From Candidatus Woesebacteria bacterium (lineage in GTDB: Bacteria > Patescibacteriota > Microgenomatia > UBA8517), in assembly GCA_003484955.1 (NCBI GenBank), contig DMZH01000002.1, positions 78,825-142,824 of the forward strand: a DNA stretch of 64,000 nucleotides. The letters are read 5' to 3'. Position numbers and translations under genes: made by a program. The notes beneath the pieces were generated by a model. The model saw only the letters and a program-made list of their open reading frames with translations. It was not told the DNA's origin and did no database searches. Every line of letters starts with the position of its first letter. Positions within the stretch are counted from its first letter, which is position 1. Below, piece by piece: positions 1,028 through 62,490 of this stretch.

Positions 1028-1028
1028 A

Positions 1029-6559: not shown

Positions 6560-6561
6560 AT

Positions 6562-46147: not shown

Positions 46148-47404
46148 ATGTCGAAATTTATAATAGTCGGCGGCAACAAGCTTGAGGGAAAAATTAAGCT
46201 TTCCGGTAATAAAAACTCGGCTTTGAAGTTAATTCCCGCCGCACTTCTTGCCGATTCCCCCACGACCTTAACTAATGTGCCTGAAATTTCCGATGTTTCC
46301 GTAATGCTTGACCTTGTTTCAAAGCTTGGGGTTAAGGTTACAAAACGCGACCATGAAGTGACAATTGATCCTCAAGGGTTAGATTCTTTTGATCCGGATC
46401 CTGATTTGTCCGCGAAATTTAGAGCCTCCGTCGTTTTAGCTGCGCCTCTTTTGGTTCGGTTTGGGAAGGCAGTTGTAACTCCTCCCGGGGGAGACCAGAT
46501 CGGGGAAAGACTTCTTGATACCCATTTTGCCATGATGCAAAAGATGGGAGTGGAAATTAAGCGCACTGACGGGAGATATTTTTTGAACTGGAAGAAAAAA
46601 GTGTCCCCTGACATTTTTTTGGATGAGCCGTCCGTTACGGCTACTGAAATGGGACTTATAATGGCATCCTCCATGCCTGACGGTATAACTATCGACGATG
46701 CCGCAACAGAACCGCATGTTCTGGATTTGGCAAAAATGCTTTCCAAAATGGGTGCGGACATTTCCGGAATAGGATCCAATGTCTTAAAAATCAGAGGGGG
46801 AAAACTGCACGGAGTTGAGCACAGAGTCTGTCCGGATCATATTGAGGGCGGCACTTTTGCAATAGCGGCAGCCATAACCGGCGGAAAAATAGAAATAGAA
46901 GACTTCGACTTCAGGCAGTACCCCATGATGTTAAATTACTTGGGCTATATGGGTGTGAATTATAAACCCGGAGAAAATTCCCTTACGGTACTGCCTTCCA
47001 AACTGGTTTCTACTCGTGGAAAGTTTCAGACAAGGCCCTGGCCAGGTTTTCCGACTGATTTAATGAGCCCTTTCATTGTTCTTGCAACGCAGACTAAAGG
47101 CACTGTTGTCTGCCACGACTGGATGTATGAATGGAGAATGTTTTTTGTGGACGATCTTATTTCGATGGGTGCGAAAATATTTATCGCTGACCCCCATAGG
47201 GTTATAGTCAGCGGCCCGACGCCACTTATGAGTGACAGGCTTTTTTGTAAAGACATAAGAGCCGGTATTTCGGTAATTTTAGCCGCTCTTGCGGCTTCGG
47301 GCAGAAGTGAAATAGAAAATGTAGAGGTTGTTGCCAGGGGGTATGAAAATATTGGACAAAGACTTCGTTCGCTAGGAGCGGAGATTTTTGAAAAGAATGA
47401 GTAA
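46148..47404 (+). CDS. murA: UDP-N-acetylglucosamine 1-carboxyvinyltransferase
   Basis: MSKFIIVGGNKLEGKIKLSGNKNSALKLIPAALLAD, the typical EPSP-synthase-fold MurA. Confidence 0.9.
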   Translation: MSKFIIVGGNKLEGKIKLSGNKNSALKLIPAALLADSPTTLTNVPEISDVSVMLDLVSKLGVKVTKRDHEVTIDPQGLDSFDPDPDLSAKFRASVVLAAPLLVRFGKAVVTPPGGDQIGERLLDTHFAMMQKMGVEIKRTDGRYFLNWKKKVSPDIFLDEPSVTATEMGLIMASSMPDGITIDDAATEPHVLDLAKMLSKMGADISGIGSNVLKIRGGKLHGVEHRVCPDHIEGGTFAIAAAITGGKIEIEDFDFRQYPMMLNYLGYMGVNYKPGENSLTVLPSKLVSTRGKFQTRPWPGFPTDLMSPFIVLATQTKGTVVCHDWMYEWRMFFVDDLISMGAKIFIADPHRVIVSGPTPLMSDRLFCKDIRAGISVILAALAASGRSEIENVEVVARGYENIGQRLRSLGAEIFEKNE

Positions 47405-48392
47405 AATTCCCAATATTGTCATTATTGGAGGAGGGACGGGTTCGTACGTTGTTGCTTCGGGATTAAGCCGCGCTCCTGTTCACATTACAATGTTGATGAC
47501 AATGGTGGATGATGGAGGTTCAAACCGAATAATCCGCGACGAATTCGGTCTACTTCCGACCTCAGGCATCAGACAGGCAATAGTTGCCCTGTCTGAAAAC
47601 AAAACCGTTTTGAGAAAATTGTTTACATACCGCTACAGCAAAGGAGGAGAGGGTTTGGACGGGATGACATTTGGGAATCTATTCATGGCTGCAATGGCTG
47701 ACATAATGGGTTCGCAAAAAAAAGGGATAGAAGAAACCTGCAGACTTTTACAGGTAAAAGGGGATATTATTCCGATTAGCTATGACAATGCCAGATTAAT
47801 GGCTAAATATGAAGACGGTTCCGAGGCCGTCGGCGAACACAATATAGATATATCCAGAAGTGCAGGAGTCAGAATTAAGAATCTGAAGATTTTACCGGCT
47901 GTGAAGTTAAATTCCAAGGCAAAAAAGGCAATTTTGGAAGCAGACATCATAATTATCGGACCGGGAGATTTTTATACCAATACAATTGCTAACCTGGTGG
48001 TTGACGATGTCGTAAATGCTTTAAAAAAATCCAAAGGAGAAATTTTGTTTATAGCCAATTTAATGAATTCACGCAGCGAAACTCCGGGATATGCGTTATC
48101 GGATTTTTTTGCCGACCTGAAAAAATATATGCCGCTTGGTCTGGTGAAAAAAGTCTTGGTTAACAACAACAATAATTTTCCAAAGCCCGCTCTTAAAGCT
48201 TATGCGCTTGAAAACACATTTCCTGTAAAAGATGATTTAAAGACTAAAATTTTTGGTAATGGAGTTAAAATAATCAGAACAGACCTCCTTTCCGATAAAA
48301 TTCCAAAGAAAGAAAAAGGGGATGCTCTCAACAGAAGTATGATACGCCATGATCCGGATAAACTTCGTGCGGCAATTTTGAATAGTTTTTAA
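47388..48392 (+). CDS. yvcK: YvcK/GlmR-family (UPF0052/CofD-like) gluconeogenesis factor
   Basis: IVIIGGGTGSYVVASGL...MVDDGGS signature. Confidence 0.8.
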   Translation: MKRMSKIPNIVIIGGGTGSYVVASGLSRAPVHITMLMTMVDDGGSNRIIRDEFGLLPTSGIRQAIVALSENKTVLRKLFTYRYSKGGEGLDGMTFGNLFMAAMADIMGSQKKGIEETCRLLQVKGDIIPISYDNARLMAKYEDGSEAVGEHNIDISRSAGVRIKNLKILPAVKLNSKAKKAILEADIIIIGPGDFYTNTIANLVVDDVVNALKKSKGEILFIANLMNSRSETPGYALSDFFADLKKYMPLGLVKKVLVNNNNNFPKPALKAYALENTFPVKDDLKTKIFGNGVKIIRTDLLSDKIPKKEKGDALNRSMIRHDPDKLRAAILNSF

Positions 48393-48397
48393 AAAAT

Positions 48398-50173
48398 ATG
48401 TGCGGAATATTTGGATATGTTGGTAATAGAAATGACGGACAGAAACTGGTTTTTAGTGGTTTGAAAAGTCTTGAATACCGCGGATACGACAGTTGGGGAG
48501 TTGGGGTAATCCCCGAGGAAAGTAAAAACACGATAGCCATAAAGAAGAAAGTTGGTAAAATCGGAAACGCCAACGTCAGCGATTTGCCGGGAGGCAGTCT
48601 TTCATTCGGCCATACACGCTGGGCAACCCACGGCGGCGTGACGGACGCAAACGCACACCCGCATCTTGATTGCAGCGGTACCATTGCCGTCATCCATAAT
48701 GGGATTTTTGAAAATTATGAGGAGATAAAAAAAGGGCTATTGAGGAAGGGTCATAAATTTGTTTCCGAAACGGATACGGAAACTCTGACACACCTCCTTG
48801 AGGATTTTAGTAAAGACAAGCCTTTTGCCGAGGCGGTAAGGGCGGCATTTAACCGCATGGATGGGCTTAATGCCGTGATAGCTGTCAGTGCTAAGGAAAA
48901 TTTACTGGTAGCCGCCAGGAACGGATCCCCTCTGGTAATCGGGTTTGGTAAGAATGAAAATTTTTTGGCAAGCGACGCGTCGGCACTTCTTCCCTATACG
49001 AGAGATGTTTATTTCCTTGAAGATAATGAAATGGCCGTTCTTGCCCCCGGCAAAGTTACTATTTTGAATGTAAAAACCGCCAAAGAGATTACCCCTAAAA
49101 GAAAAAGGCTGGATTGGAAAATTGAACAAGGTGAAAAGGGAAAATATAAGTTTTATATGCTTAAAGAAATTTTTGAGCAGCCTCAAATTATTACGGATAT
49201 TGCCGTATCCGGAGCTTCTCAGGCTGAAGAAATAGCAAAAAAAATCAAGGACGCGCGGGGAACTTATTTGGTTGGCTGTGGGACAGCTTCATATGCCTGT
49301 CTCGCGGGCTCGTATTTGTTTTCTAAACTGGCAAAACGGCATGTAAACTTTGCGATAGGTAGCGAGTTTGGCTACAGTTTGGATTTCTTAAACAAAGATA
49401 GTCTGGTGATTGCAATTTCACAGTCCGGAGAAACGATGGATATTCTGGAATCGGTTAAAAAAGCCAAAGATAAGGGCGCAAAAATTCTGAGTCTGGTAAA
49501 TGTTCCCGGTTCATCCCTTTACAGGCTATCCGATTATAAAATGCTGATTGGAGCCGGTCAGGAGAGGGCGGTTGCGTCAACAAAGGCTTTTACCGGCATG
49601 GTTGCGCACCTAGTGCTTTTGGCCAATTCATTAAACGGCGGAGTAAAAGAAGGTCAAAAATCACTGATGGCAGCAGTTAAGTCGGTTAATCAGATATTAT
49701 CCCTCAAATCTCTAAGAAAAATTAAAGAACTTACATCGCGAATTGTAGACAAAAAACATATCTATGTAATCGGGCGTGGGCTTTCTTATCCGGCAAGCCT
49801 TGAAACAGCACTTAAAATTAAGGAAATTTCATACATCCATGCCGAAGGCCTTGCCGCGGGCGAACTTAAGCATGGCCCGCTTGCTTTGATTGAAAAAGGT
49901 ACTCCGTGTATCAGTTTTCTCCCTAACGATGAGACTTACGGATCAAATCTTGCCGGAGCTATGGAAATGAAGGCAAGAGGAGGCTATATTATCGGGATTT
50001 CTCATAAACCTCGCGAGGTTTTTGATTATTATATACATGTTTCCGATGCCGGGGAGTCCAGTATTATTCCCGAGGTTATTGTTGCTCAGCTTCTTGCCTA
50101 CTACCTCACAATAAAGAAAGGACTTGATCCGGATAAACCCAGAAATTTGGCAAAGTCCGTTACAGTTAAATAA
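48398..50173 (+). CDS. glmS: glutamine--fructose-6-phosphate aminotransferase (isomerising)
   Basis: MCGIFGYVG Ntn-Cys start and two SIS domains. Confidence 0.9.
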   Translation: MCGIFGYVGNRNDGQKLVFSGLKSLEYRGYDSWGVGVIPEESKNTIAIKKKVGKIGNANVSDLPGGSLSFGHTRWATHGGVTDANAHPHLDCSGTIAVIHNGIFENYEEIKKGLLRKGHKFVSETDTETLTHLLEDFSKDKPFAEAVRAAFNRMDGLNAVIAVSAKENLLVAARNGSPLVIGFGKNENFLASDASALLPYTRDVYFLEDNEMAVLAPGKVTILNVKTAKEITPKRKRLDWKIEQGEKGKYKFYMLKEIFEQPQIITDIAVSGASQAEEIAKKIKDARGTYLVGCGTASYACLAGSYLFSKLAKRHVNFAIGSEFGYSLDFLNKDSLVIAISQSGETMDILESVKKAKDKGAKILSLVNVPGSSLYRLSDYKMLIGAGQERAVASTKAFTGMVAHLVLLANSLNGGVKEGQKSLMAAVKSVNQILSLKSLRKIKELTSRIVDKKHIYVIGRGLSYPASLETALKIKEISYIHAEGLAAGELKHGPLALIEKGTPCISFLPNDETYGSNLAGAMEMKARGGYIIGISHKPREVFDYYIHVSDAGESSIIPEVIVAQLLAYYLTIKKGLDPDKPRNLAKSVTVK

Positions 50174-50248
50174 CTTGCCAAAACTGGGCAGAGCTTGCAT
50201 ATACACTATATACTATATAGTTTATAGTTATAAGCTATAATTAATATT

Positions 50249-50572
50249 ATGTCTACGGAAAACATGGGTGAGTTTATTAGAAGCCTCCTTCAGAAGGACG
50301 ATTCTTTGACGGATCTAAACAATTGCCGTAATTCTACGTCAAAAATAGGGAAAGAAGTAAAAGGCAAATTTCCTGAAGCTAAAACAGAAGTTTTGGTCTA
50401 TCCGGAACCCAGCGCAGGATACGGTGTGCATTATTCGCTTTTGATTGCCCAGGGCGATGAAGAAATTCTGGTTAACGCCGTAGCCGCTCCAGGGTTCCCC
50501 GAGTATATTGGAAGTTCTAAGGCTGCTCCTCCAACGTTTACAGCAATGAAGGTAACGCCGAGGGTAATATAG
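50249..50572 (+). CDS. hypothetical small protein
   Basis: 107-aa ORF, no motifs. Confidence 0.3.
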   Translation: MSTENMGEFIRSLLQKDDSLTDLNNCRNSTSKIGKEVKGKFPEAKTEVLVYPEPSAGYGVHYSLLIAQGDEEILVNAVAAPGFPEYIGSSKAAPPTFTAMKVTPRVI

Positions 50573-50588
50573 TTTTTCGAAAAAGAGG

Positions 50589-51761
50589 TTAACCTCTAAA
50601 AGTGTAAATAATCCGGTTTTCTTTCAAGTCTGCAATTTTCTTAAATCCGTAGTTTGTATAAAGTTTGTTCGCATGGACGTTGTCTTTCGCCGTGCTAAGC
50701 CAGACCCCTTTTTCATTGGATACCCTAAAATCTTTAAAGACAATATACATAAATTTTGATGAAAGTCCTTTGCTGCGGGCCGGAGGATAATTTCTTATTG
50801 CAAAAGTGTAGCCACAGTTAGATGTCTTTAAAAGTTTGGAAACTCTGACGGGTGCGGTTTTGCTGCTAAACCAAATTATTCCGAGGAGTTTATTTCTACG
50901 CCCGACCATTACATAAATTTTTTTTCCACGCTTTTTCCAGGAAATAAAGGCCTTGAATGAACTGAAACGCTCCCTGTCATGTGTAAATTTTTTGATCAAG
51001 TTGTCTTTGCCGGTTGAGTGAATTAATTGTTCAATTTGGGGCTTGGAAATTTCTCTTAATATAGAAATATTTTCTTTTATATTCCTTTGAGACAAGATGC
51101 CTACGAAATTTTTCAGATAATGAATAAGATTTTCGGAAGAATCCGTTTCATAATCAATCGATATTTTATCCTTTGGCAGAATATTCTTATATTTTCCAAA
51201 CCTGAACCAGACAGTGATACATCCAGGGTCAACTCTTTTAGCTTTTTCCAGAAAATGGGCTCTATCATCCACCATTATTATTTGGTTATAGCCGGACGCT
51301 TTGAATTTCAGAATTGTACCCCCGAGTGCGGTTTTTTTATTTTTCAGAATTACGATATTGTCTTTGCCTATTAATTTTTCAATTCCGCTTCCATTTATTT
51401 TAGTAGGTTGGTAATGGGCATCACCCAAGGAGTAGAGGGTTACTTTTCCGCCACCCTTCAATATTTTTATTAGTTTGTCCGAGTGCTTGAAAACGAATTT
51501 TTTAAACTCCGCTTTGAAAAACAAGTCCTCAAAATCCTTTGCCGAACCATCCCCGAATTTTTTGTGTAAATCTTTGGAAATTTCTTTAATATCAACATAT
51601 TTCAAAGCTTTAACCGATTCGGCGTAAGTTTTCCAAAATAGGGATAAGTTTTTATCGCCAAATCTTTTTTTGAAATTTTCGGAGATGGATCTTTTTAGGG
51701 CATCGGTATCAAAAAGGGTGTTGTCAAAATCGATAAGATAAACTCTTTTGGGTTCTCTCAT
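50589..51761 (-). CDS. HAD-superfamily hydrolase/phosphomutase domain fused to a GNAT N-acetyltransferase domain
   Basis: HAD motif I LIDFDNTLFDTD (DxDxT), a cap region, motif IV IIMVDDRAH. C-terminal GNAT motif A ARSKGLS (R-x-x-G-x-S) and motif B NVHANKLYTNYGFKK. Confidence 0.65.
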   Translation of the reverse strand: MREPKRVYLIDFDNTLFDTDALKRSISENFKKRFGDKNLSLFWKTYAESVKALKYVDIKEISKDLHKKFGDGSAKDFEDLFFKAEFKKFVFKHSDKLIKILKGGGKVTLYSLGDAHYQPTKINGSGIEKLIGKDNIVILKNKKTALGGTILKFKASGYNQIIMVDDRAHFLEKAKRVDPGCITVWFRFGKYKNILPKDKISIDYETDSSENLIHYLKNFVGILSQRNIKENISILREISKPQIEQLIHSTGKDNLIKKFTHDRERFSSFKAFISWKKRGKKIYVMVGRRNKLLGIIWFSSKTAPVRVSKLLKTSNCGYTFAIRNYPPARSKGLSSKFMYIVFKDFRVSNEKGVWLSTAKDNVHANKLYTNYGFKKIADLKENRIIYTFRG

Positions 51762-51824
51762 TGTTATAATCTTGCCCTTGCCTCAATTGGAGTCGGGCTC
51801 GATTGCTGATATAATATACCACAG

Positions 51825-53834
51825 ATGATCAAAAATCTTGGGGAATTAATCGGAAAGCTTTCCAGTTACAAAGGTTTGACCGACGACTCGAGAAAGGTTG
51901 AAAAAGGCCATATTTTTGTTGCCGTCAGAGGTGTTGGAAGTGACGGTCACGACTATATTAAAGACGCTTTCAAAAACGGCGCTTCCCTGGTAGTGGGCGA
52001 AAAGGATATCAAAATCGGGAATTATCTTAAAGTTAAAGACAGCCGCGAAGCCCTGGGACAACTTGCGTCCGTTTGGTTTGGCCGCCCTTCCGAAAAACTT
52101 AAAATGATCGGGATTACCGGAACAAAAGGAAAAACCACGACTGCACACATTATTCATCACATTTTAAATTCCCTTGGAAAAAGAGTTGGAATTTTGTCCT
52201 CAATTTCGGTGCCCGGCCTTCATGTTACAAGTCCTGATGTAATTTCTTTGCATAAATTCCTAAAGAAATTTGTCGATGATGGGGACGAATATGCAGTTGT
52301 CGAAGTCAGCTCTCATGGGATTGACCAAAAAAGAATCGCCGGGATTCACTTTGACGTTGGAGTGCTGACCAATATAGCGCCGGAGCACTTGGATTATCAC
52401 AGGACCTTCAAAGAGTATAAAAAGGTAAAAAAGTCATTTATAAATTCCTGTAAATGGAAAGTTATTTCTCCCAAAGACACTTCCATAAATGTATTGCCGG
52501 GAAAATACAATAATTTGAACGTCGAGGTGGCTATCTCAGCGGTTGAAAAATTTGGTATTTCAAGGAATAGTGCCCTAAAAGTGCTTAAAGATTTTAGACT
52601 GCCGGAAGGAAGACTTGCCGAAATAAAAAACGATATAGGCGCAAACATTATTATAGATTTTGCGCATACTCCAGATTCGCTTGAGGCGGTATTGACCCAT
52701 CTTCGCGGGACTACTCGGGGAAAACTTATTTCCTTATTCGGGTGTGCGGGGGAAAGAGATCCAAGAAAAAGATTTAAAATGGGCAAAATTTCAGCAAAGT
52801 TAAGCGACATTTCAGTTTTTACCGCAGAGGATCCGAGAAGCGAGAATGTCTTTGACATCTTGTCAAAAATGTCGGAAGGGGCGAGAAGTGCAAACGCCAA
52901 AGAAGATAAAACTTTTTTCAAAATTGCGGAGCGTGGTGAAGCAATTGCCTATGCCCTCTCTCTTTGCAAAAAAGGAGATACGGTTGCAATTTTAGGAAAA
53001 GGCCATGAAAAAAGCATGGCATATGGGGTTTACGAACACCCTTGGAGCGACAAGGAAATAGTTGAAAACTTTCTGGGCAGAAGTAAGGACATATCTGCCG
53101 TGATTCTGGCTGCTGGAAAAGGGACGAGAATGAAATCAACTCTGCCTAAAGTTATTCACAAAATTTGTGGACGGCCGATGATTGCCTACACATTGGAAAA
53201 TTTAAGATCCGCAGGAGTAGGAAGCATTACTGCAGTTATTTCTTTTAAAAGGAATCAGGTGGCAAAGTACATTAAAGGTGCCATTGAGCTTGCTATACAG
53301 AAAAATCCCAAGGGAGGAACTGCGGATGCGGCCAGGGCAGGTTTTGTAAAAGTACCTCCTTCCTCAAAGATACTGATTGTTATAAACGGAGATGACAGTG
53401 CCTTTTACAAGCCGGAAACAATCAGGCAAATTATTAAGATTCATGTTGAGAGGCAAAGGGCGCTGACATTTGTTTCACTTATGAAAAACAACCCAACCGG
53501 GCTTGGTAGGGTTATCAGGGGTAAAAACGGTCTTATTACAAAAATCGTTGAAGAAAGAGATGCCACACCCGAGGAAAAAAATATTAAAGAGGTTAATGAC
53601 GGCCTTTATGTTTTCGATAAAGACTGGTTTGCCAAAAATATCGATAATGTCAAAAAGAGCAAGCAGGGCGAATATTATCTGGTAGATTTAATTAAGATGG
53701 CGATTGATCAGGGAATGAGGATGGCAACCTATACTTTGCCGGATGACAGTGAATGGCAGGGAATAAATACTCCTGAGGAATTGGAAAAAGCCAGGATAAA
53801 AATGGAAGAAAGATTGGGGACTTTCAATGAATAA
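51825..53834 (+). CDS. murE: MurE (UDP-MurNAc-L-Ala-D-Glu:diamino acid ligase) fused to a GlmU-type sugar-1-phosphate uridylyltransferase domain (no LbH acetyltransferase domain)
   Basis: Mur ligase GITGTKGKTTT at aa 1 to about 420. The C-terminal third (about nt 53090-53831) carries the GlmU N-domain signature: ILAAGKGTRM, LPKVIH, GTADA, GLGR, QGEYYLVDLI. A single uninterrupted frame. Confidence 0.8.
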   Translation: MIKNLGELIGKLSSYKGLTDDSRKVEKGHIFVAVRGVGSDGHDYIKDAFKNGASLVVGEKDIKIGNYLKVKDSREALGQLASVWFGRPSEKLKMIGITGTKGKTTTAHIIHHILNSLGKRVGILSSISVPGLHVTSPDVISLHKFLKKFVDDGDEYAVVEVSSHGIDQKRIAGIHFDVGVLTNIAPEHLDYHRTFKEYKKVKKSFINSCKWKVISPKDTSINVLPGKYNNLNVEVAISAVEKFGISRNSALKVLKDFRLPEGRLAEIKNDIGANIIIDFAHTPDSLEAVLTHLRGTTRGKLISLFGCAGERDPRKRFKMGKISAKLSDISVFTAEDPRSENVFDILSKMSEGARSANAKEDKTFFKIAERGEAIAYALSLCKKGDTVAILGKGHEKSMAYGVYEHPWSDKEIVENFLGRSKDISAVILAAGKGTRMKSTLPKVIHKICGRPMIAYTLENLRSAGVGSITAVISFKRNQVAKYIKGAIELAIQKNPKGGTADAARAGFVKVPPSSKILIVINGDDSAFYKPETIRQIIKIHVERQRALTFVSLMKNNPTGLGRVIRGKNGLITKIVEERDATPEEKNIKEVNDGLYVFDKDWFAKNIDNVKKSKQGEYYLVDLIKMAIDQGMRMATYTLPDDSEWQGINTPEELEKARIKMEERLGTFNE

Positions 53835-55035
53835 ATTAAAGAAGATCCACATGATGGGAATCGGCGGGAGTGGAATATCTGCCGTTGCCCTCCTCGCCTC
53901 CAAAATGGGCTATGAGGTTACGGGCTGTGATCTGGAGGAGCAGACCGCCTACGCTAAGAATTTTTTTAAAGGACATGATCCAAGCCACCTGGAAGGAATA
54001 GACTTTCTTATAGTTTCGCCTGCAATTTATTATCAAAACAAAGAAAATCCGGAGCTTATCGAGGCGGAGAAAAGAAAAATCGTAATGACCTGGCAGGAGT
54101 TTCTCGGAAAATATTTGACCGAGGGCAAGAAAGTAATTTGCATTGCGGGCACCCACGGCAAGTCTACAACAACAGCAATGGTAGGTAAGCTTTTAGTTGA
54201 TGCAGGTTTGGACCCTTCAGTTGTTGTCGGCGCAAAAATACCAGAATGGGAGGCAAATGCAAGGTTTGGCAAAGGAGAATATTTTGTAATCGAGGCAGAC
54301 GAATTTAATAATAATTTCCTAAACTATCATCCCGACATAATTATTATTAACAATATTGAGTTTGACCATCCCGATTTTTTCAAAAACGAAGAGGAAGTAC
54401 GGGAAGCTTTCAGAAAATTTGTGAACAATCTTAAAGGAGAGAAAATTTTAATTATGGAAAAAGATAATTCTGGGAAAAAGTTTCATTTAAAGATTTTTGG
54501 AGAACACAATCAGAAGAATGCAAACCTGGTTTATGTTTTGGGTAAAAAGTTGGGAATAGCCGAAGAGACCATTGTTAAATCTTTGGAGAGTTTTTCCGGA
54601 ATCGGGAGGAGAATGGAGCTTATTGCGGGTCGTGGTGGCGTAAAGATTTTTGATGATTATGCTCACCATCCGACCGCCATAAAAACAACGATTGAAGGTT
54701 TAAGAAAAGAATTTCCCGAATCAAAAATTTGGGTAATTGATGAACCGCACGGTTTTGCGAGGACTCATGCGCTTCTTCCGAAATATGATGGAGTTTTTAA
54801 TGCGGCGGATAAAATTATAGTTGGACCGATTTTTAAAGCTCGTGACAGTGAAACTTTTGGGATAACTCCGGAAGATGTTGCCCGTGCCACCGGCAACAAA
54901 AACGCGATTGGGATTAATTCTTTTGAAAAAATTAAGAAAATGTTATTGGAAGAAGTTAAATCGGGAGATATTATTTTGGTAATGGGAGCAGGAAAAAGTT
55001 ATTTATGGGCCAGGGAGATTGCCGAGTTGATATAA
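53827..55035 (+). CDS. murC: UDP-N-acetylmuramate--L-alanine ligase
   Basis: IHMMGIGGSGISAVALLASKMGYEVTGCD (MurC N-domain) and CIAGTHGKSTTT. Confidence 0.8.
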   Translation: MNKLKKIHMMGIGGSGISAVALLASKMGYEVTGCDLEEQTAYAKNFFKGHDPSHLEGIDFLIVSPAIYYQNKENPELIEAEKRKIVMTWQEFLGKYLTEGKKVICIAGTHGKSTTTAMVGKLLVDAGLDPSVVVGAKIPEWEANARFGKGEYFVIEADEFNNNFLNYHPDIIIINNIEFDHPDFFKNEEEVREAFRKFVNNLKGEKILIMEKDNSGKKFHLKIFGEHNQKNANLVYVLGKKLGIAEETIVKSLESFSGIGRRMELIAGRGGVKIFDDYAHHPTAIKTTIEGLRKEFPESKIWVIDEPHGFARTHALLPKYDGVFNAADKIIVGPIFKARDSETFGITPEDVARATGNKNAIGINSFEKIKKMLLEEVKSGDIILVMGAGKSYLWAREIAELI

Positions 55036-55043
55036 TTAGTTCT

Positions 55044-56057
55044 ATGAAAATAATTGAAGACAAAAAATTTAAAGATTTAACGACTTTCCGCATCGGAGGG
55101 AAGATAAAATATTATGTTGAAGTAAAAAGCGAGGGTGAGATAAGAGAGATGATCCGGTTTGCAAAAACCAACAACCTGCCGATTTTTATAGTTGGTGACG
55201 GAAGCGATTTTTTGGCCAGCGACAGGAAGTATGAGGGGCTGGTAATTAAATATACAGGCGATGGTTTAAAATTCGAAGTTCAAGATTCTGAGGTTTTTGT
55301 AACAGCGGGGGCGGGACTCAATTGGGATAAATTGGTTGAAGAAACCGTAAAAAGAAATCTTCAAGGATTGGAATGCCTTTCGGGGGTTCCCGGGACAGCA
55401 GGGGCAGCTCCGATTCAAAATATGGGTGCTTACGGACAGGAAGTGGCAGATACTTTTTATAAGCTTGAGGCCTATGATATTCAAAATGAAGAGCATAAAA
55501 CTTTTACCAAAGAGGACTGTAAATTCGGCTACAGGGAAAGTGTTTTTAAGGATAAAGAAAACTGGCAGAAATATCTGATTATCAGTGTAACTTTCAAGTT
55601 GAGTAAAGACGGGAAACCAAACACAAGCTATGAGTCGTTGAAAAATTCTGTCGGCGAGGGAGCAACACTGCAAGAGGTTAGGAAAGCGGTTTTGAAAACC
55701 AGAAAGGAAAAACTGGAGGATCCGAAAGAAGTCGGCAATGCTGGATCGTTTTTTAAAAATCCCGTGATAGATGTCGATGAGAAAGTCAGGATTGAAAAAG
55801 AGTTTGCCGATGCAAAAATCTTTCCGTTTAAAAATATGTATAAAGTTTCCGCTGCCTGGATGATAGAAAGAGCCGGATGGAAAGGAAAAAGCGAAGACGG
55901 GGTTGCGGTTTCGCCCAAACACGCTCTTATTTTGATAAACAAAAGCGGATATGCATCTGCCGAGGATGTCTATAAACTTTCGGAGATGATAATAAAGGAT
56001 GTTTCTGAGAAATTCGGAGTTAAGCTTGAGAGGGAAGTTCAGTTGATCAATTTTTAA
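55044..56057 (+). CDS. murB: UDP-N-acetylenolpyruvoylglucosamine reductase
   Basis: TTFRIGGKIKYYVEVKSEGEI...PIFIVGDGSD FAD-binding domain and a C-terminal MurB domain. Confidence 0.85.
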   Translation: MKIIEDKKFKDLTTFRIGGKIKYYVEVKSEGEIREMIRFAKTNNLPIFIVGDGSDFLASDRKYEGLVIKYTGDGLKFEVQDSEVFVTAGAGLNWDKLVEETVKRNLQGLECLSGVPGTAGAAPIQNMGAYGQEVADTFYKLEAYDIQNEEHKTFTKEDCKFGYRESVFKDKENWQKYLIISVTFKLSKDGKPNTSYESLKNSVGEGATLQEVRKAVLKTRKEKLEDPKEVGNAGSFFKNPVIDVDEKVRIEKEFADAKIFPFKNMYKVSAAWMIERAGWKGKSEDGVAVSPKHALILINKSGYASAEDVYKLSEMIIKDVSEKFGVKLEREVQLINF

Positions 56058-56084
56058 CTACAGCGCATTAATGCACCATAATTT

Positions 56085-57332
56085 ATGAATAATAAAATTG
56101 CGATTTTGGGATATGGTCTTGAAGGTCAGGATGCAGAAAAGTATTTCAAGAATCTTGGAGACGAAGTTACTGTTTTAGATAAGAAATTTGACGAAAATTA
56201 TCTTAAAAATCTGAATGACTTTAATATTATTGTTCGTTCTCCGGGTGTTTACAGATATCTGCCCGAAATTGTAAAAGCAGAAGAAAACGGGGTTAAAATA
56301 ACATCCTCTTTAAAAATATTTTTTGATAACTGTCCGGGAAATATTATCGGCGTGACCGGAACAAAGGGAAAAGGAACAACCTCAACTTTAATTTATGAAA
56401 TTCTTAAGAATGCCGGAAAAGACGTTTATCTGGTAGGGAATATCGGGAAACCTTATTTGGAACTTCTTTCAAAACTCACAAAAAACAGTTTCGTAATAAT
56501 GGAGCTTTCTTCTTTTCAGTTAATCGACTTAACCAAAAGTCCGCATATTGCGGTAGTCTTAAATATCACCCTTGATCATATGGATTGGCATAAGAGTAAA
56601 GAAGAATATGTAGAGGCCAAGAAAAATATCCTGAGTTACCAAAGTCCCGACGATTTTGCAATATTAAACGAGGAATATGAAACACCAAAAAGTTTTGTAG
56701 AAGCCGCAAAAGGAAAAACAGTTTTTTTCTCAAAGACCAAGCTTGAACAGAAATACAAAGAGAATTTACTTCTTCGTGGTGAGCATAATTTGGAAAACAT
56801 TGCCGCTGCCGTTGCTGCCGCAAAAATTGTCGGCATTAACGAGGGGACAATTCTGGAAACCGTGAGGTCTTTTAAGGGGTTGGAGCACAGACTTGAGTTG
56901 GTTGACACGATAGAAGGCATAGCCTTTTACAACGATTCTTTTGCAACCGGCCCCCAGCCGACGATTGCGGCAATGAACTCGTTTACTGATCCCGAAACTC
57001 TGATTCTTGGCGGAAGCGATAAAGGCCTGGACTATCAGGAATTAATGCGCGAGATAGAAAAAAAGGAAAACATCAAAAATCTTATTTTGATTGGCGACGT
57101 CGGAAATAAAATTACCGATATCTTGAAGGGTTACGCCTTTCAAGGCAGTGTAATCAACATGGGGCACTCATCGATGGAGGAAATCGTCAAAAAAGCTTTC
57201 GAGATAACCCCTAGGGGCGGCATTGTAATCCTGTCACCGGCAGCGGCCAGTTTTGATATGTTCAAAGACTATAAAGACAGGGGAAACCAATTTAAGAAGT
57301 CAGTTTTTAAACTCAGAGACCTACCTGTATAA
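56085..57332 (+). CDS. murD: UDP-N-acetylmuramoylalanine--D-glutamate ligase
   Basis: IAILGYGLEGQ...GVTGTKGKGTT. Confidence 0.85.
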   Translation: MNNKIAILGYGLEGQDAEKYFKNLGDEVTVLDKKFDENYLKNLNDFNIIVRSPGVYRYLPEIVKAEENGVKITSSLKIFFDNCPGNIIGVTGTKGKGTTSTLIYEILKNAGKDVYLVGNIGKPYLELLSKLTKNSFVIMELSSFQLIDLTKSPHIAVVLNITLDHMDWHKSKEEYVEAKKNILSYQSPDDFAILNEEYETPKSFVEAAKGKTVFFSKTKLEQKYKENLLLRGEHNLENIAAAVAAAKIVGINEGTILETVRSFKGLEHRLELVDTIEGIAFYNDSFATGPQPTIAAMNSFTDPETLILGGSDKGLDYQELMREIEKKENIKNLILIGDVGNKITDILKGYAFQGSVINMGHSSMEEIVKKAFEITPRGGIVILSPAAASFDMFKDYKDRGNQFKKSVFKLRDLPV

Positions 57333-57341
57333 TCTCCAGTC

Positions 57342-58391
57342 ATGATATCAACGCAGCCAATCTTAAGTTTCCGGTATTTTAAATTTAAAAAGAATAAACT
57401 TGCCGAAAATGTTAAACGTTTGTTCTATCTTTCCTGGGAGGACGCTTTCTGGGATATCCTACTCAAGAAAAAAGTACCTAAAGGATCATATGTTTTACTT
57501 CCCGATTTTTTTTGCGGTGACGTTGAGAGTAACATCAGATTGCATGGCTGCAAGCCGGTTTACTACAAAATCAATACCAACCTGACAGCAGACAAAAAAT
57601 CTTTTAAATCGAAAATCGACCGGGTTAAGCCAAGTGTGATCGTAATATTTCACCCTGTCGGGATAAAAAGCAATCTGATGGATGACCTAAAGTGGCTTAA
57701 AAAAATCACTGGAAGCTCAATCCTGATAGAGGACTCTGTTCATAGAATTGTTGATCCGGAAGAAATTAAAATTTTTAAAAAAGACCATTTTATTATCGAT
57801 AGTCTAAGGAAAGTAGTTCCCCTGCAGGGGTCAAATATTTATGGAAGAGTTGAAGATTTGGACTTTTCGGCACCCCCTTTTTACCAGTCGTTTTTTTATT
57901 CGATCAGGGTTAATCTGCTTTGGGCTTTAATGGTTTTAGGTTGGTCGTTAAGATTTGGTCGAATTGCGGAAAGGTTGATGCTAAGGGGATACTCCCTGAT
58001 AGGGGACTCAATGCTGCCTGCGCGGGGACCTTTCCCGGCAAACTTTTTAAGCTCCAGAATAAATACCGGGGAAATCCGGGATATTAGGAAACACCAAGCC
58101 ATTTATTACGAAAAAGAATTGGGCAAATTTCTACCCGTAAAAATAAGTCTTTCTGGTGAAGACCGTGCCAGCCTGCGTGCCTACCCAGTAATTTTAGACA
58201 AAGAATATGCCGGCTGGATTTTAAAGTTTTTAAGAACAAACGACCTTCTTGTCAGGTTTGAGTTGAATGATTCGGGCTGGTCCAGGAAACAAAAAATAAT
58301 TTATTTGCCACTTGGAATTCAAATGACCGAAAAGGAGCAAGGTACGGTCTGTGGTTTGGTTAAATCAGCGCTTTTAGGCTATCGGGCATAA
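57342..58391 (+). CDS. hypothetical protein, possible divergent DegT/DnrJ-like PLP-fold enzyme
   Basis: Weak, spaced similarity to sugar aminotransferases: VLLPDFFCGDV...GCKPVYYKIN...VIVIFHPVGI...ILIEDSVHRI...SLRKVVPLQGSNIYG with a candidate Lys. Confidence 0.3.
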   Translation: MISTQPILSFRYFKFKKNKLAENVKRLFYLSWEDAFWDILLKKKVPKGSYVLLPDFFCGDVESNIRLHGCKPVYYKINTNLTADKKSFKSKIDRVKPSVIVIFHPVGIKSNLMDDLKWLKKITGSSILIEDSVHRIVDPEEIKIFKKDHFIIDSLRKVVPLQGSNIYGRVEDLDFSAPPFYQSFFYSIRVNLLWALMVLGWSLRFGRIAERLMLRGYSLIGDSMLPARGPFPANFLSSRINTGEIRDIRKHQAIYYEKELGKFLPVKISLSGEDRASLRAYPVILDKEYAGWILKFLRTNDLLVRFELNDSGWSRKQKIIYLPLGIQMTEKEQGTVCGLVKSALLGYRA

Positions 58392-59222
58392 TTGTCATAT
58401 AATACCTTTATGCTTAGGGAGCAAGATAAGCCTGTCGGGGTTTTTGACTCGGGTCTTGGAGGTTTAACGGTAGTCAAAGAACTGACTAAAATTTTACCGC
58501 ATGAGAACCTGGTATATTTGGGCGATACCGCCAGGGTTCCTTACGGCCCGCGCGGAGTAGAAACAATTAAACGCTTTTCTGAAGAAAATACCAGATTTTT
58601 AATAGGAGAGAATGTCAAAGCGGTGGTGATTGCCTGCAACACATCTTCGGCGGTTGCGGCGGACTTCCTGAAAAGTACTTTTCCAAAAATTCCGATATTT
58701 GAAGTGATAAGCTCGGCTTCCAATGAGGCTTCGCGAGGTACCCGTTCTATTGGGGTTATCGGGACATACGGAACAGTAGGGAGTCATGCTTACGCTAAAA
58801 ATATTTCCAAAAATTTGTCCCGAACAAAAGTTATTGAAAAGGCGTGTCCCCTCTTTGTCCCGTTTATTGAGGAAGGGGAGATAGGGAGTAAAGCGCTAAA
58901 GCTGGTTGCAAAAGGGTACCTGTCGGAGCTTAAAAAACAAAAAGTAGGCACCTTGATTATGGGCTGCACCCATTACCCTATCATTAAAAATATTATTAGT
59001 GAAACAATGGGTAAGGGTGTTACCTTGATCAATCCCGGAAAATCTGTCGCAAAAGAAGTTTTTGATTTTTTAAAGAAAAATAATTTATTAAACAGGCAAA
59101 AAAAGAAGGGAACTGCCGACTTCTATGTTACGGACCTCACAGATAGATTCACAAAGGTTGCGGAAATGTTTCTAGGGAAAAAGATAAAAAATGATCTAAA
59201 AATCGCCAGGCTGACAAAATGA
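58392..59222 (+). CDS. murI: glutamate racemase
   Basis: PVGVFDSGLGGLTVVKEL...YLGDTARVPYGPRG...ACNTSS...GCTHYP. Confidence 0.9.
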   Translation: MSYNTFMLREQDKPVGVFDSGLGGLTVVKELTKILPHENLVYLGDTARVPYGPRGVETIKRFSEENTRFLIGENVKAVVIACNTSSAVAADFLKSTFPKIPIFEVISSASNEASRGTRSIGVIGTYGTVGSHAYAKNISKNLSRTKVIEKACPLFVPFIEEGEIGSKALKLVAKGYLSELKKQKVGTLIMGCTHYPIIKNIISETMGKGVTLINPGKSVAKEVFDFLKKNNLLNRQKKKGTADFYVTDLTDRFTKVAEMFLGKKIKNDLKIARLTK

Positions 59223-60148
59223 ACAAAAAACTAAAAGTAGCGGTACTAATGGGCGGCAAGTCATCGGAACATGAGGTATCGATAGTGTCCGGCAAAGAAG
59301 TTATAAAAAACTTAGACAAGAAGAAATATATGGTTTATCCTCTGGTAATTTCGAAAGACGGAAAAGGACTAAATAAAATTGTCAAAATTAATCCGGATAT
59401 CGCCTTTATAGCCCTTCACGGAAAATACGGAGAGGATGGAAAAATTCAAGGTTTCCTTGAAGTAATAGGTATTCCATACGTTGGTTCGGGCGTGCTTGCG
59501 TCCGCCATTGGAATGGATAAGGAAATTTTCCGAGAGTTGATGAATTTTCATAAAGTACCCATCCCCGAATATGTGTTTTTGAAGAAGGGTGAAAAATATC
59601 AAAGTGTTTATAAAACATTGGGTGCTCCGCCTTACTTTGTGAAACCGGTCGAGGGAGGTTCCTCGATAGGTGTTTCGCCGGCAAAAAATTTAAATGAGCT
59701 TAAAAAATCCATGAACCTGGCGTTTGAGTATGACAACAGAATTTTAGTGGATAAATATATAAAAGGAAGAGAGTTTACCTGTGCCGTTACGGGAAACGAT
59801 AAACCGATAGCACTTCCGGTCGTGGAAATAAAACCCCTGAAAGGGAGTTTTTTTGATTATGAATCAAAATATGCCGAAAGCGGTTCGGAAGAAATAGTTC
59901 CGGCTAGAATTTCGAAAACCCTTACGGAAAAAATCCAGAAAATCGCGTTGGAAGTTTATAGAATTGTCGGATGCCGTGGCTTTGGAAGAGTTGATTTTAT
60001 TTTAAAGGACGGCAGAACCCCTGTTGTTTTGGAAGTCAATACAATACCGGGACTTACGCCGATGTCTCTTTTTCCCAAGGCGGCAAAAGCGGCGGGTATT
60101 TCATATCCCCGTCTGCTTGATATGATCATCGACTTAGTCAAGTCGTAG
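59219..60148 (+). CDS. ddl: D-alanine--D-alanine ligase
   Basis: KVAVLMGGKSSEHEVSIVSGK and an ATP-grasp C-terminal domain. Confidence 0.9.
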   Translation: MNKKLKVAVLMGGKSSEHEVSIVSGKEVIKNLDKKKYMVYPLVISKDGKGLNKIVKINPDIAFIALHGKYGEDGKIQGFLEVIGIPYVGSGVLASAIGMDKEIFRELMNFHKVPIPEYVFLKKGEKYQSVYKTLGAPPYFVKPVEGGSSIGVSPAKNLNELKKSMNLAFEYDNRILVDKYIKGREFTCAVTGNDKPIALPVVEIKPLKGSFFDYESKYAESGSEEIVPARISKTLTEKIQKIALEVYRIVGCRGFGRVDFILKDGRTPVVLEVNTIPGLTPMSLFPKAAKAAGISYPRLLDMIIDLVKS

Positions 60149-60182
60149 AATCATCAGTCTTGCTGATGTAAAATGATTAAAG

Positions 60183-61403
60183 ATGCAATCGAAAAAAATT
60201 AACACCATCCTCAAATGGTGGGTGACCCCAAAGCTTCCTCCGGAAGATATATTTGCCAGGCATAATTTTGTCTCCCAATGGCTGACACATCCGATTAAAA
60301 GGAGACTTGCCAGAACCTACTTGAAGTATTTGCAAAAACATACGAATCTTAAAGTAATTGGCATTACAGGGAGTACCGGCAAGACCACCACTACCGAAAT
60401 TTTAGCGTCAATTCTCAGTAGAATCGGTAAAACTGTCTGGTCGGCAGAGGGGGTAGACCCTGTTTACAATATTCCCAACACGATTCTCAGAGCAACTCCG
60501 GACACAAAATATTTAATCCTCGAAATGTCAGTGGAATATGTAAACGAAATGGATTATTATCTCTGGCTTGCGAAGCCCGATATCGGAATTATAACCAACA
60601 TCGCTGTTACCCATACCCAATTTTTAGGGGACGAAAAAGGTGTTGCTTGTGAAAAAGGAAAGTTGATTAAAGGGTTATCCACGGGCGGAACAGCCATACT
60701 TAACAAAGAAGACAAACTGGTATGCTCACTGGGGAATGGATGGATATGTAAAGTCGCATTTTTTGGTAACACCGCCAATATTTATGCAAAAAATATCAGG
60801 TTGAATCCTGATTTGAGTACTAATTTTACCCTAGTAATTAATCAGAGTATAAAAACTGTTCATATGAAAGCCTTGGGAAGCCAGTTTGTGAGCAACGCCC
60901 TGGCTTCTGCCGCCGCCGCAGACAGTCTCGGTGTGGGCCTTAATCAAATTGTCCGGGGAATGGAACTTTTTAAGCCACCGACCCACAGGCTCAACATTTT
61001 TAGAAGTAAGCTGTATGGGATTATATTTGATGACAGCTATAACAGTAATCCTAAAGCGGCGAACGAATCCCTGGATACTTTTGAGGTAGTTTCCAAGGGT
61101 AAAAAGAAAATAGCTGTAATTGGAGACATGCTTGAGCTGGGTAAATTTGAGGAAAGCGCCCACAGAGAACTTGGCAAAAAAGTCGGAAAAATGAAATTTG
61201 ACTGCATTATCGGAGTCGGTAATGCCGCAAGATTTATGGTAGACGAAGCCTCCCGTGAGTGGGGAAATAAAAATTGCTTTTTAGTGGCAGATTATCTTGA
61301 GGCTTTGGAGATTGTTAAGCCAATTTTGGACAAAGATTCCGCCCTTTTTGTAAAGGGTTCACGCTCCATTCATCTTGACAAACTTGTTGATGCCTTAAAA
61401 TGA
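60183..61403 (+). CDS. murF: UDP-MurNAc-tripeptide--D-alanyl-D-alanine ligase
   Basis: VIGITGSTGKTTT. Mur ligase domains. Sits between ddl and mraY. Confidence 0.85.
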   Translation: MQSKKINTILKWWVTPKLPPEDIFARHNFVSQWLTHPIKRRLARTYLKYLQKHTNLKVIGITGSTGKTTTTEILASILSRIGKTVWSAEGVDPVYNIPNTILRATPDTKYLILEMSVEYVNEMDYYLWLAKPDIGIITNIAVTHTQFLGDEKGVACEKGKLIKGLSTGGTAILNKEDKLVCSLGNGWICKVAFFGNTANIYAKNIRLNPDLSTNFTLVINQSIKTVHMKALGSQFVSNALASAAAADSLGVGLNQIVRGMELFKPPTHRLNIFRSKLYGIIFDDSYNSNPKAANESLDTFEVVSKGKKKIAVIGDMLELGKFEESAHRELGKKVGKMKFDCIIGVGNAARFMVDEASREWGNKNCFLVADYLEALEIVKPILDKDSALFVKGSRSIHLDKLVDALK

Positions 61404-61429
61404 ATGCTGTTATAATCTAACTGATCCGT

Positions 61430-62479
61430 ATGACAAACTATTTAACTCTAAATTTGGGGCTTATAATTTTCTCCTTTCTTATCTGCGGTGTATTGATAGT
61501 CCCCTTTATTAATTTGCTTTATAGGTTGAAGCTTACAAGAAGGAAAGAGGCCCCGGAACACGGTAAAGTGCCTCTTTTTGATAAACTTCACGATATTAAA
61601 GAAGGAACTCCTGTAGGGGGTGGAATTTTGATTATTGCTGTAGTTACAATACTTTTTGCGATTTCTTTCCCGCTGGCATCATTTTTAGGACTTTTTGTCA
61701 GAAGTTCGTTTTCGCTGAGAGCGGAGCTTTTTGTAATATTTTTTGCCTTTATTTCTTTTGGGCTTCTTGGATTGTCCGATGATCTTTTGAAAGTTTTCAG
61801 CAAGCCCACAAAAGGCGTTTTAGGACTTTGGTTTGGCCTCAGACGCAGACAAAAATTCATTTTACAGTGGGTTCTGGGCCTTCTTTTGGGGTTTTTCATA
61901 TATAAATATTTAGGAGTTCATATAGTCAACATTCCCGGTTTTGATACGGTTTGGGATTTGGGCATATGGTATATACCGTTCTCGGCTTTTGTTATCGTCG
62001 CGTTTTCGAATGCTTTTAATATTACCGATGGGCTCGACGGACTTTCCACTGGGCTTTTGCTAATCTGCCTTGGCGTTTTTGAAATAATTGCGATCGGAAA
62101 TCTGGATACTCCACTTCTCTTCTTTATTTCACTCTGGGCGGGTGCTCTATTCGCGTTTTTGTACTTTAATGTTTGGCCGGCAAGGATTTTTCTGGGGGAT
62201 GCCGGAGCCCTTTCTTTCGGGGCAATGCTGGCGGTAATAGGTCTTATTACCGGAAAAATCTTGGCGCTTGTTGTTGTCGGAGGAATTTTTGTTATTGAAG
62301 CCACCACTTCTCTTATTCAAATTTTGGGTTGGAAATATTTGAAAAGACCCATCTTTCCTTTGGCTCCGATTCACCACACTTTTCTGGCAAGAGGCTGGAA
62401 AGAGCCCAAAATTGTTATACGTGCATGGATTCTGGGCCTTCTTTTGGGAGTGTTCGGACTCTGGCTGGCGACAATGTAA
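61430..62479 (+). CDS. mraY: phospho-N-acetylmuramoyl-pentapeptide transferase
   Basis: NAFNITDGLDGLSTG and a polytopic membrane layout. Confidence 0.9.
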   Translation: MTNYLTLNLGLIIFSFLICGVLIVPFINLLYRLKLTRRKEAPEHGKVPLFDKLHDIKEGTPVGGGILIIAVVTILFAISFPLASFLGLFVRSSFSLRAELFVIFFAFISFGLLGLSDDLLKVFSKPTKGVLGLWFGLRRRQKFILQWVLGLLLGFFIYKYLGVHIVNIPGFDTVWDLGIWYIPFSAFVIVAFSNAFNITDGLDGLSTGLLLICLGVFEIIAIGNLDTPLLFFISLWAGALFAFLYFNVWPARIFLGDAGALSFGAMLAVIGLITGKILALVVVGGIFVIEATTSLIQILGWKYLKRPIFPLAPIHHTFLARGWKEPKIVIRAWILGLLLGVFGLWLATM

Positions 62480-62490
62480 GTTTATCTTAA

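Follow-up and report, generated by a model that had tools for sequence, protein, structure and literature searches.

A putative non-canonical UDP-N-acetylglucosamine supply module with a HAD-GNAT fusion protein in the dcw cluster of a Woesebacteria lineage

A window of 64,000 nucleotides from a Candidatus Woesebacteria genome (contig DMZH01000002.1; "the window" denotes this whole stretch of DNA) contains a dcw cluster in which GlmS, YvcK/GlmR, a HAD-GNAT fusion protein and a uridylyltransferase domain fused to MurE on balance appear to form a non-canonical supply module for UDP-N-acetylglucosamine (UDP-GlcNAc) in this lineage. The route composed of GlmS, GlmM and GlmU, an antibiotic target, is regarded as essential and universally present in bacteria. 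Judged from the sequences, the arrangement described here would represent a new variant of this known pathway, with strong comparative-genomic support. More tentatively, we propose that the HAD domain, which affiliates with the family of PDB entry 2P11, is a new phosphohexosamine mutase displacing GlmM. Together with a GNAT domain displacing the left-handed beta-helix (LbH) acetyltransferase and with an LbH-less GlmU, it would constitute a three-domain route from glucosamine 6-phosphate (GlcN-6-P) to UDP-GlcNAc.

The gene glmS (48398-50173, plus strand), coding for the enzyme that forms GlcN-6-P from fructose 6-phosphate (Fru-6-P), matched TIGR01135 with 616 bits (cutoff 418) and contains GATase and two SIS domains according to Pfam. 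It is preceded by murA (46148-47404, plus strand; TIGR01072, 440 bits), encoding the first committed user of UDP-GlcNAc, and by yvcK/glmR (47388-48392, plus strand; TIGR01826, 239.5 bits, cutoff 196), encoding a CofD-related UDP-GlcNAc-binding protein. The three genes are contiguous, with overlaps or 6-bp gaps. In Firmicutes, YvcK/GlmR binds UDP-GlcNAc and activates GlmS (PMC7525490, PMC6171935), and the protein is also an accessory N-acetylglucosamine 1-phosphate (GlcNAc-1-P) uridyltransferase (PMC10128056). A Firmicutes-type GlmS activator and accessory uridyltransferase is thus part of a dcw cluster from a candidate phyla radiation (CPR) bacterium. The HAD-GNAT gene (50589-51761, minus strand, 390 aa) encodes a HAD domain (residues 1 to ~225, 51087-51761) and a GNAT domain (residues ~226-390, 50592-51086). 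According to the coordinates of the open reading frames (ORFs), it shares a divergent intergenic region of 63 bp (51762-51824) with the fusion gene murE-glmU_N (51825-53834, plus strand, 669 aa). In the latter, a MurE part (residues 1 to ~419, 51825-53081; TIGR01085, 403 bits; Mur_ligase, Mur_ligase_M and Mur_ligase_C) is followed by a GlcNAc-1-P uridylyltransferase domain (residues ~420-669, 53082-53834). An original prediction, made from the DNA sequence alone, had placed glmS, the HAD-GNAT fusion and the MurE-fused GlmU-type domain without LbH at these positions, and the profile searches agree with it on all three.

The MurE-fused uridylyltransferase is GlmU-type and has no LbH acetyltransferase domain. 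Residues ~420-669 align to positions 2-240 only of the GlmU models, with 195-207 bits (best NF010934, 207), and the whole protein scores below the cutoff of 367 for bifunctional GlmU (TIGR01173). No hexapeptide or LbH match was obtained in MurE-GlmU_N, which stops at residue 669, directly after the uridylyltransferase domain. In the alignment with GlmU of E. coli, 17 of the 19 positions checked were identical, including all ten catalytic and sugar-binding residues; R18, K25, Q76, G81, T82, D105, G140, E154, N169 and N227 are kept, as is the LAAGKGTRM loop. Y103 alone is altered (Y103N), giving the clade signature NGDDS versus YGD in E. coli. A MurU-like identity of the domain was ruled out, GlmU models scoring far higher (~210-221 bits versus 45 bits for MurU in the homologue P0047).

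The HAD-GNAT family is narrow, with 20 clusters among 5.8 billion proteins. In every examined locus with a full-length homologue, the HAD-GNAT gene divergently adjoins murE-glmU_N, both within its own lineage (L001-L008) and in loci of 94% (L012), 79% (L013), 54% (L025), 50% (L026), 40% (L014) and 39% (L024) identity. Since it recurs in all homologous loci examined, the arrangement is not a product of chance. The association extends to covalent fusions. An exhaustive phmmer search with GlmU_N as query against 1.84 billion representative sequences returned 16,501 matches, and the architectures of the best 150 were sorted by local profile searches. Stand-alone LbH-less proteins of ~250 aa accounted for 103 of these 150, and full GlmU proteins with LbH for eight. 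Twelve combined GlmU_N with a HAD domain of the type discussed here (E 1e-23 to 1e-36), and one protein of 626 aa (P0073) was a triple fusion of GlmU_N, HAD (E 7e-54) and GNAT (E 2e-37). Nine were identified as Mur-ligase fusions with the MurE query, and two more, sorted as "other", consist of GlmU_N followed by a Mur ligase according to Pfam. In P0060, from the same GlmU_N clade, the fusion partner is an APH-type kinase; by its Pfam family membership, this may be an anomeric sugar kinase, which would supply a sugar 1-phosphate, and a HAD delivering the 1-phosphate would be a parallel case. The fusion partners of LbH-less GlmU_N were varied and comprised Mur ligases (in either order), an APH-family kinase, a short-chain dehydrogenase, a C39 peptidase and a PD-(D/E)XK nuclease domain (P0031, P0037, P0154, P0060, P0065, P0101 and P0119).

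Stand-alone homologues of the HAD domain (20-33% identity) were located in the order yvcK-ABC transporter-HAD-glmS in two Moraniibacteriota and in the order HAD-yvcK in a metagenome-assembled genome (MAG) of the Eubacteriales. In two Magasanikbacteria, a stand-alone HAD gene is followed by a stand-alone GlmU_N gene of 245 aa. The Magasanikbacteria operon (L016 9062-13965, L018 31-3402) consists of genes for a TrmB-like regulator, HAD, GlmU_N and a Zn-dependent alcohol dehydrogenase; a class I/II aminotransferase is added in L016 only, the contig of L018 ending before that position. This is a different setting for the HAD/GlmU_N pair. The divergent adjacency, the domain fusions and the stand-alone HAD genes beside glmS, yvcK or GlmU_N together establish a genetic coupling of HAD-GNAT to the LbH-less uridylyltransferase and support a functional tie to this enzyme and to GlmS.

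The distribution of acetyltransferases around these genes is complementary. Among GlmU_N-HAD fusions without GNAT, an LbH acetyltransferase is encoded next door in two of the three informative loci. In the first of these (L112/L113), the gene order is ftsI-murE-[GlmU_N-HAD]-[NTP-transferase+LbH]-murC-murB-yvcK-murA. In the second, from Beckwithbacteria (L111), GlmU_N-HAD lies between yvcK and murC and again adjoins a gene for an NTP-transferase with LbH. In both cases, the neighbour matches TIGR03992 (Arch_glmU, a model of the archaeal-type bifunctional sugar 1-phosphate nucleotidylyltransferase/acetyltransferase) along the entire model with 214-249 bits. The third GlmU_N-HAD locus with flanking sequence (L114) is situated outside a dcw cluster and has no NTP-transferase+LbH neighbour. 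Neither the window nor the 10 kb around any HAD-GNAT locus encodes an Arch_glmU-like LbH protein. The presence of GNAT where LbH is absent, and of LbH in two of the three loci without GNAT, is the pattern expected for a non-orthologous displacement of LbH by GNAT.

Pfam recognises only Acetyltransf_1 in HAD-GNAT (residues 265-373, E 3e-5), and NCBIfam yielded no significant match for the protein. The AlphaFold2 model shows two confident domains (predicted local distance difference test, pLDDT, 90.9; predicted template modelling score, pTM, 0.88), of which the C-terminal half matches GNAT structures. In an alignment of 15 homologues, Y368 was invariant and the loop R329/K331/G332, a putative acetyl-coenzyme A-binding motif, was conserved. 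The matches of the GNAT half are generic (RimI, YycN, Naa50, SpeG and AAC(6')), with RimI-, AAC(6')- and Naa50-like matches at E 1e-2 to 1e-5, and of the 77 PDB sequence matches (E<=10), the 60 listed included no GNA1 chain, nor did the Foldseek top 50. The original prediction had likened the GNAT to eukaryotic GNA1 and the route to those of eukaryotes and archaea. A GNA1-like identity was not borne out, whereas its suggestion that the GNAT could supply the N-acetylation fits the complementary distribution of GNAT and LbH. The comparison with archaea was wrong, these organisms using GlmM plus an LbH-containing GlmU-type enzyme.

The HAD domain had been suggested to supply a phosphomutase or phosphatase step, beta-phosphoglucomutase (beta-PGM) being named as an example of a HAD phosphomutase; classification assigns it, by a full-length profile match and by fold, to the uncharacterised 2P11 family. 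The HAD-GNAT profile matches PDB 2P11 (BXE_B1342 from Burkholderia xenovorans, a HAD of unknown function solved by structural genomics) at E 1.4e-19. HAD motif I, DFDNT (D11, D13, T15), and D165-D166 are invariant among the 15 aligned homologues. Across 24 diverse members, D13, T15, K121 and D166 never vary and D11 almost never does; the canonical Ser/Thr of motif II lacks conservation, and a signature particular to the family, G-D-x-x-Y-Q-x-x-K, is shared with 2P11. In the AlphaFold2 model, helices 19-104, placed between the first and the second strand, form a helical C1-type cap. The invariance of D13 (Asp+2), the typical general acid/base of HAD phosphatases and mutases, counts in favour of the proposed module. 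Fold comparison gave scores of 16.1 for NANP, 13.4 for beta-PGM, 13.3 for the HAD pyrophosphatase BT2127, 13.3 for the glucose 1-phosphate phosphatase YihX and 12.5-12.7 for GmhB, all alike and far below that of 2P11; since these functionally informative relatives score so similarly, the comparison cannot separate mutase, phosphatase and pyrophosphatase. The HAD core, D11 and D13 and the C1 cap agree with a phosphomutase of the beta-PGM type. Beta-PGMs are not the closest relatives of the domain in structure or in sequence.

The wider 2P11 family is large, with >448 relatives in metagenomes of the Joint Genome Institute (JGI), mostly stand-alone and on high-GC soil contigs. A scan of these metagenomes aimed at GlmU_N-HAD fusions retrieved stand-alone 2P11-like HADs only and no fusions, which makes these loci a negative control for gene context. 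The association with UDP-GlcNAc genes is specific to the CPR/Firmicutes branch of the family. In two of 80 soil-metagenome loci (L054 6998-8830, L081 10618-12336), a stand-alone 2P11-like HAD gene is immediately followed by a phosphoglucomutase-like gene of 570-610 aa.

A search with E. coli GlmM (phmmer --max) against six-frame ORFs of at least 50 aa found nothing better than E 3 in the window, in line with the absence of glmM reported in the original prediction, and no GlmM homologue was present in the ~275 kb of related CPR loci. The single LbH protein of the window (20779-21375) matched NF007797 with 101 bits and GlmU with only 34 bits. It was rejected as a stand-alone C-terminal domain of GlmU and is a WcaF-type polysaccharide O-acetyltransferase located inside a glycosyltransferase cluster.

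It is established that the pathway requires an acetyltransferase, which the uridylyltransferase lacks. We infer with fair confidence that the GNAT is the non-orthologous replacement of the LbH domain and uses acetyl-coenzyme A to N-acetylate a glucosamine phosphate, and with less confidence that the HAD handles the phosphate step delivering the 1-phosphate to the uridylyltransferase. GlmS would convert Fru-6-P to GlcN-6-P. The HAD would most likely act as a 6-phosphate to 1-phosphate phosphomutase in the place of GlmM, by way of a 1,6-bisphosphate intermediate and with D11 forming the aspartyl-phosphate. Either the GNAT would act on GlcN-6-P and the HAD on N-acetylglucosamine 6-phosphate (GlcNAc-6-P), or the HAD on GlcN-6-P and the GNAT on glucosamine 1-phosphate (GlcN-1-P). 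The GlmU_N domain would finally uridylylate GlcNAc-1-P to UDP-GlcNAc. In this manner, the whole four-step path from Fru-6-P to UDP-GlcNAc would be accounted for by GlmS, GNAT, HAD and GlmU_N. In characterised GlmU enzymes, the LbH domain acts on GlcN-1-P. An LbH partner acting on this substrate in the sister lineages argues mildly against a strictly eukaryote-like order and points, if anything, to GlcN-1-P as the substrate of acetylation. A mutase role of the HAD is plausible and the most economical reading. It would account for the constancy of the HAD as partner of GlmU_N despite a changing acetyltransferase, for the fusion of the clade member P0060 instead to a presumed anomeric kinase, which would also deliver a sugar 1-phosphate, and for the lack of GlmM in the neighbourhoods examined. 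If this tentative assignment holds, Woesebacteria, and other Microgenomates in other domain combinations, would use the route, and the 2P11 family would gain its first function.

Several observations weigh against such a module. The family, 2P11 included, is biochemically uncharacterised, and its soil members are not linked to glmS, glmU or yvcK genes. The GNAT has no specific kinship to GNA1 in sequence or fold, so far as the profile and structure matches indicate, and its similarity is generic. To our knowledge, the HAD mutases acting on alpha-anomers have C2b caps, and the HAD studied here has a C1-type cap. P0052, a GlmU_N-HAD protein from Beckwithbacteria (L111 6329-7753), carries Asn at the position of the HAD nucleophile (VNLDNT), which reflects either an inactive HAD or a sequence error. 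HAD homologues at 20-33% identity occur in MAGs of Clostridia and Bacilli, which presumably possess GlmM and GlmU. Lastly, the window encodes ManC (29927-31081; TIGR01479, 295 bits), which needs mannose 1-phosphate; hence some phosphohexomutase or phosphomannomutase is probably encoded elsewhere in the genome, none being present in the window for phosphomannomutase, and such an enzyme could also serve as GlmM.

In a competing explanation that we regard as possible though doubtful, GlmM or a promiscuous phosphoglucomutase or phosphomannomutase encoded elsewhere produces GlcN-1-P, the GNAT acetylates it, GlmU_N uridylylates the product with the help of YvcK/GlmR, and the HAD is accessory. The HAD could then be a pyrophosphatase pulling the uridylyl transfer, a sugar-phosphate phosphatase with a housekeeping or proofreading task that controls hexosamine-phosphate pools, or a structural or regulatory domain. 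The phosphomannomutase required by ManC, the occurrence of HAD homologues beside yvcK in Firmicutes MAGs with presumably complete canonical pathways, the Asn of P0052 and the action of the LbH domain on GlcN-1-P would all agree with it, as would the fact that the nearest structural neighbours besides 2P11 are hydrolases (e.g. NANP, YfnB and PH0459). However, a hydrolase that destroys an intermediate would be an odd recurrent fusion partner of a biosynthetic uridylyltransferase in genomes of ~0.8 Mb, and the stand-alone HADs next to glmS or yvcK, with no nucleotidyltransferase adjoining, fit a sugar phosphate better than pyrophosphate as substrate. The lack of GlmM in the ~275 kb of neighbourhoods likewise speaks against a separate mutase.

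A bypass by phosphatase and kinase is improbable. In the manner of MupP, AmgK and MurU, the HAD would convert GlcNAc-6-P to N-acetylglucosamine and an anomeric kinase would form GlcNAc-1-P; in the manner of GmhB, a kinase would produce GlcN(Ac)-1,6-bisphosphate, from which the HAD would remove the 6-phosphate. There is precedent in the peptidoglycan recycling of Pseudomonas, where the HAD phosphatase MupP feeds AmgK and MurU (PMC5371407, PMC5371409), and P0060 joins an APH-family kinase to a GlmU_N domain of the same clade. Yet a phmmer search with the APH domain of P0060 detected no APH-type kinase in the window or the fetched loci, the sole unassigned conserved gene of the cluster (57342-58391) has a DegT-like pyridoxal phosphate (PLP) fold rather than a kinase fold, the uridylyltransferase is GlmU-type and not MurU-type, and the bypass would consume one more ATP and burden a minimal genome with a further gene. 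Still less probable is an accidental position of HAD-GNAT, as a small-molecule or protein acetyltransferase joined to a generic phosphatase, for instance, with no relation to UDP-GlcNAc. The generic family-level matches mentioned above and the JGI label of one homologue ("FMN phosphatase YigB / RimI-like") would suit such a protein, but the adjacency persists even at 39% identity, other lineages carry the same HAD and the HAD-GNAT pair in covalent fusion with GlmU_N, and HAD-glmS, HAD-yvcK and HAD-GlmU_N neighbourhoods occur independently in other phyla.

The proposed module shares features with several known systems. With the bifunctional GlmU of the E. coli type, it has the GlmU-type uridylyltransferase domain with its catalytic residues and LAAGKGTRM loop in common; the protein in the window differs in the lack of the LbH acetyltransferase and trimerisation domain, in its fusion to the C-terminus of MurE and in the NGDDS signature. 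As in the eukaryotic GNA1/GNPNAT1-AGM1-UAP1 route, N-acetylation is proposed for an acetyltransferase of the GNAT fold, and the enzymes are separate instead of one bifunctional GlmU. In contrast to that route, no specific kinship of the GNAT to GNA1 was detected, the candidate mutase is a HAD and not an alpha-D-phosphohexomutase, and the uridylyltransferase is GlmU-type and not UAP1-type. A homologue of Arch_glmU (TIGR03992, ST0452-like) adjoins GlmU_N-HAD in the dcw clusters of L111 and L112/L113, presumably supplying the LbH acetyltransferase; it is missing from the window and from all HAD-GNAT loci, where the GNAT takes that functional slot. The HAD phosphomutases (beta-PGM, the eukaryotic-type phosphomannomutase and the alpha-phosphoglucomutase PgmH of Lactococcus) resemble the HAD domain in the core, in the DxD motif with both Asp conserved, in a helical cap between motifs I and II, and in a plausible mechanism by Asp-phosphate and bisphosphate. 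2P11 and its soil relatives are stand-alone, unlike the CPR branch, which is fused or adjacent to UDP-GlcNAc genes. MupP-AmgK-MurU of Pseudomonas also combines a HAD, a step forming a sugar 1-phosphate and a small LbH-less uridylyltransferase that feed the Mur pathway (PMC5371407), but the window has no anomeric kinase nearby and its nucleotidyltransferase is GlmU-type. The location of the module together with glmS indicates de novo synthesis rather than recycling.

The dcw and peptidoglycan cluster occupies the 3' third of the window and is collinear on the plus strand. Its 5' part has the order mraZ, rsmH, an ftsL-like ORF and ftsI, followed by murA-yvcK/glmR-glmS; downstream of murE-glmU_N, murC, murB, murD, a gene for a DegT-like PLP-fold protein (57342-58391), murI, ddl, murF, mraY and ftsW (53827-63597, plus strand) were identified with Pfam and NCBIfam. 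The original prediction had described this cluster as nearly complete and collinear, which holds with yvcK/glmR as a further member, except that no alr (alanine racemase) gene is found in the cluster and murG is not within the window. A 107-aa ORF without Pfam or NCBIfam match (50249-50572, plus strand) separates glmS from the 3' end of HAD-GNAT and is convergent with the latter; it is called in the close relatives L001-L008 and absent in the loci of 50-54% identity (L025/L026). Neither a glmS ribozyme nor any other Rfam match was obtained in 42-56 kb, and a scan of the locus for sigma-70 promoters and terminators gave nothing above chance, the divergent region 51762-51824 included. Proteins of the window are identical to EKE12656.1 and EKE12657.1 (ACD_13C00145G0005/6, Rifle aquifer) and to KKR53676.1 (Candidatus Woesebacteria), and the genome is small and CPR-like (~0.77 Mb). 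In the most distant HAD-GNAT lineage (L024, 39%), a 271-aa NUDIX-GNAT fusion is encoded between yvcK and glmS (6211-7026, minus strand), and murB is fused to a Mur ligase (571-2808, minus strand, 745 aa). In B. subtilis, too, yvcK is preceded by a NUDIX gene (yvcI).

The gene at 57342-58391 (plus strand, 349 aa), located between murD and murI, had no significant Pfam, NCBIfam or PDB sequence match. It has at least 228 homologous clusters, the few source names being Roizmanbacteria and "Patescibacteria group bacterium". Its AlphaFold2 model (pLDDT 95) adopts a fold-type-I PLP fold resembling that of DegT/ArnB, with K157 invariant; the product is thus predicted to be a divergent PLP-fold enzyme within the dcw cluster. 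This fold ruled it out as a missing kinase or mutase.

Positions 1-34000 of the window form a very large glycan-synthesis cluster with ~14 glycosyltransferases of families GT1, GT2 and GT4, five PMT_2 (protein-mannosyltransferase-like) membrane proteins, a Wzy_C ligase/polymerase, a flippase, an RmlD-like reductase, a sugar C-methyltransferase, AsnB, the WcaF-type acetyltransferase and ManC mentioned above, a Bac_transf priming transferase and DUF4012. A RhuM/Fic-domain protein (9145-10101, plus strand) is embedded in it.

We found no literature on LbH-less GlmU, on this HAD, on HAD-GNAT or on the status of glmM in CPR bacteria, and public annotations of these proteins read "hypothetical", "MurE" or "GlmU, partial". 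A large, mostly uncultured radiation commonly carries GlmU without the acetyltransferase half (103 of the 150 closest relatives were LbH-less), and at least Woesebacteria and Beckwithbacteria recruited an uncharacterised HAD, together with a GNAT or a separate LbH protein. If the proposed route is true, automatic annotation and calls of pathway completeness would mislead for such genomes, a core cell-wall pathway would have undergone two non-orthologous displacements, and a first clue to function would be gained for the 2P11 family of HAD proteins. As small and soluble-looking proteins, they open the hypothesis to direct testing in vitro and in E. coli.

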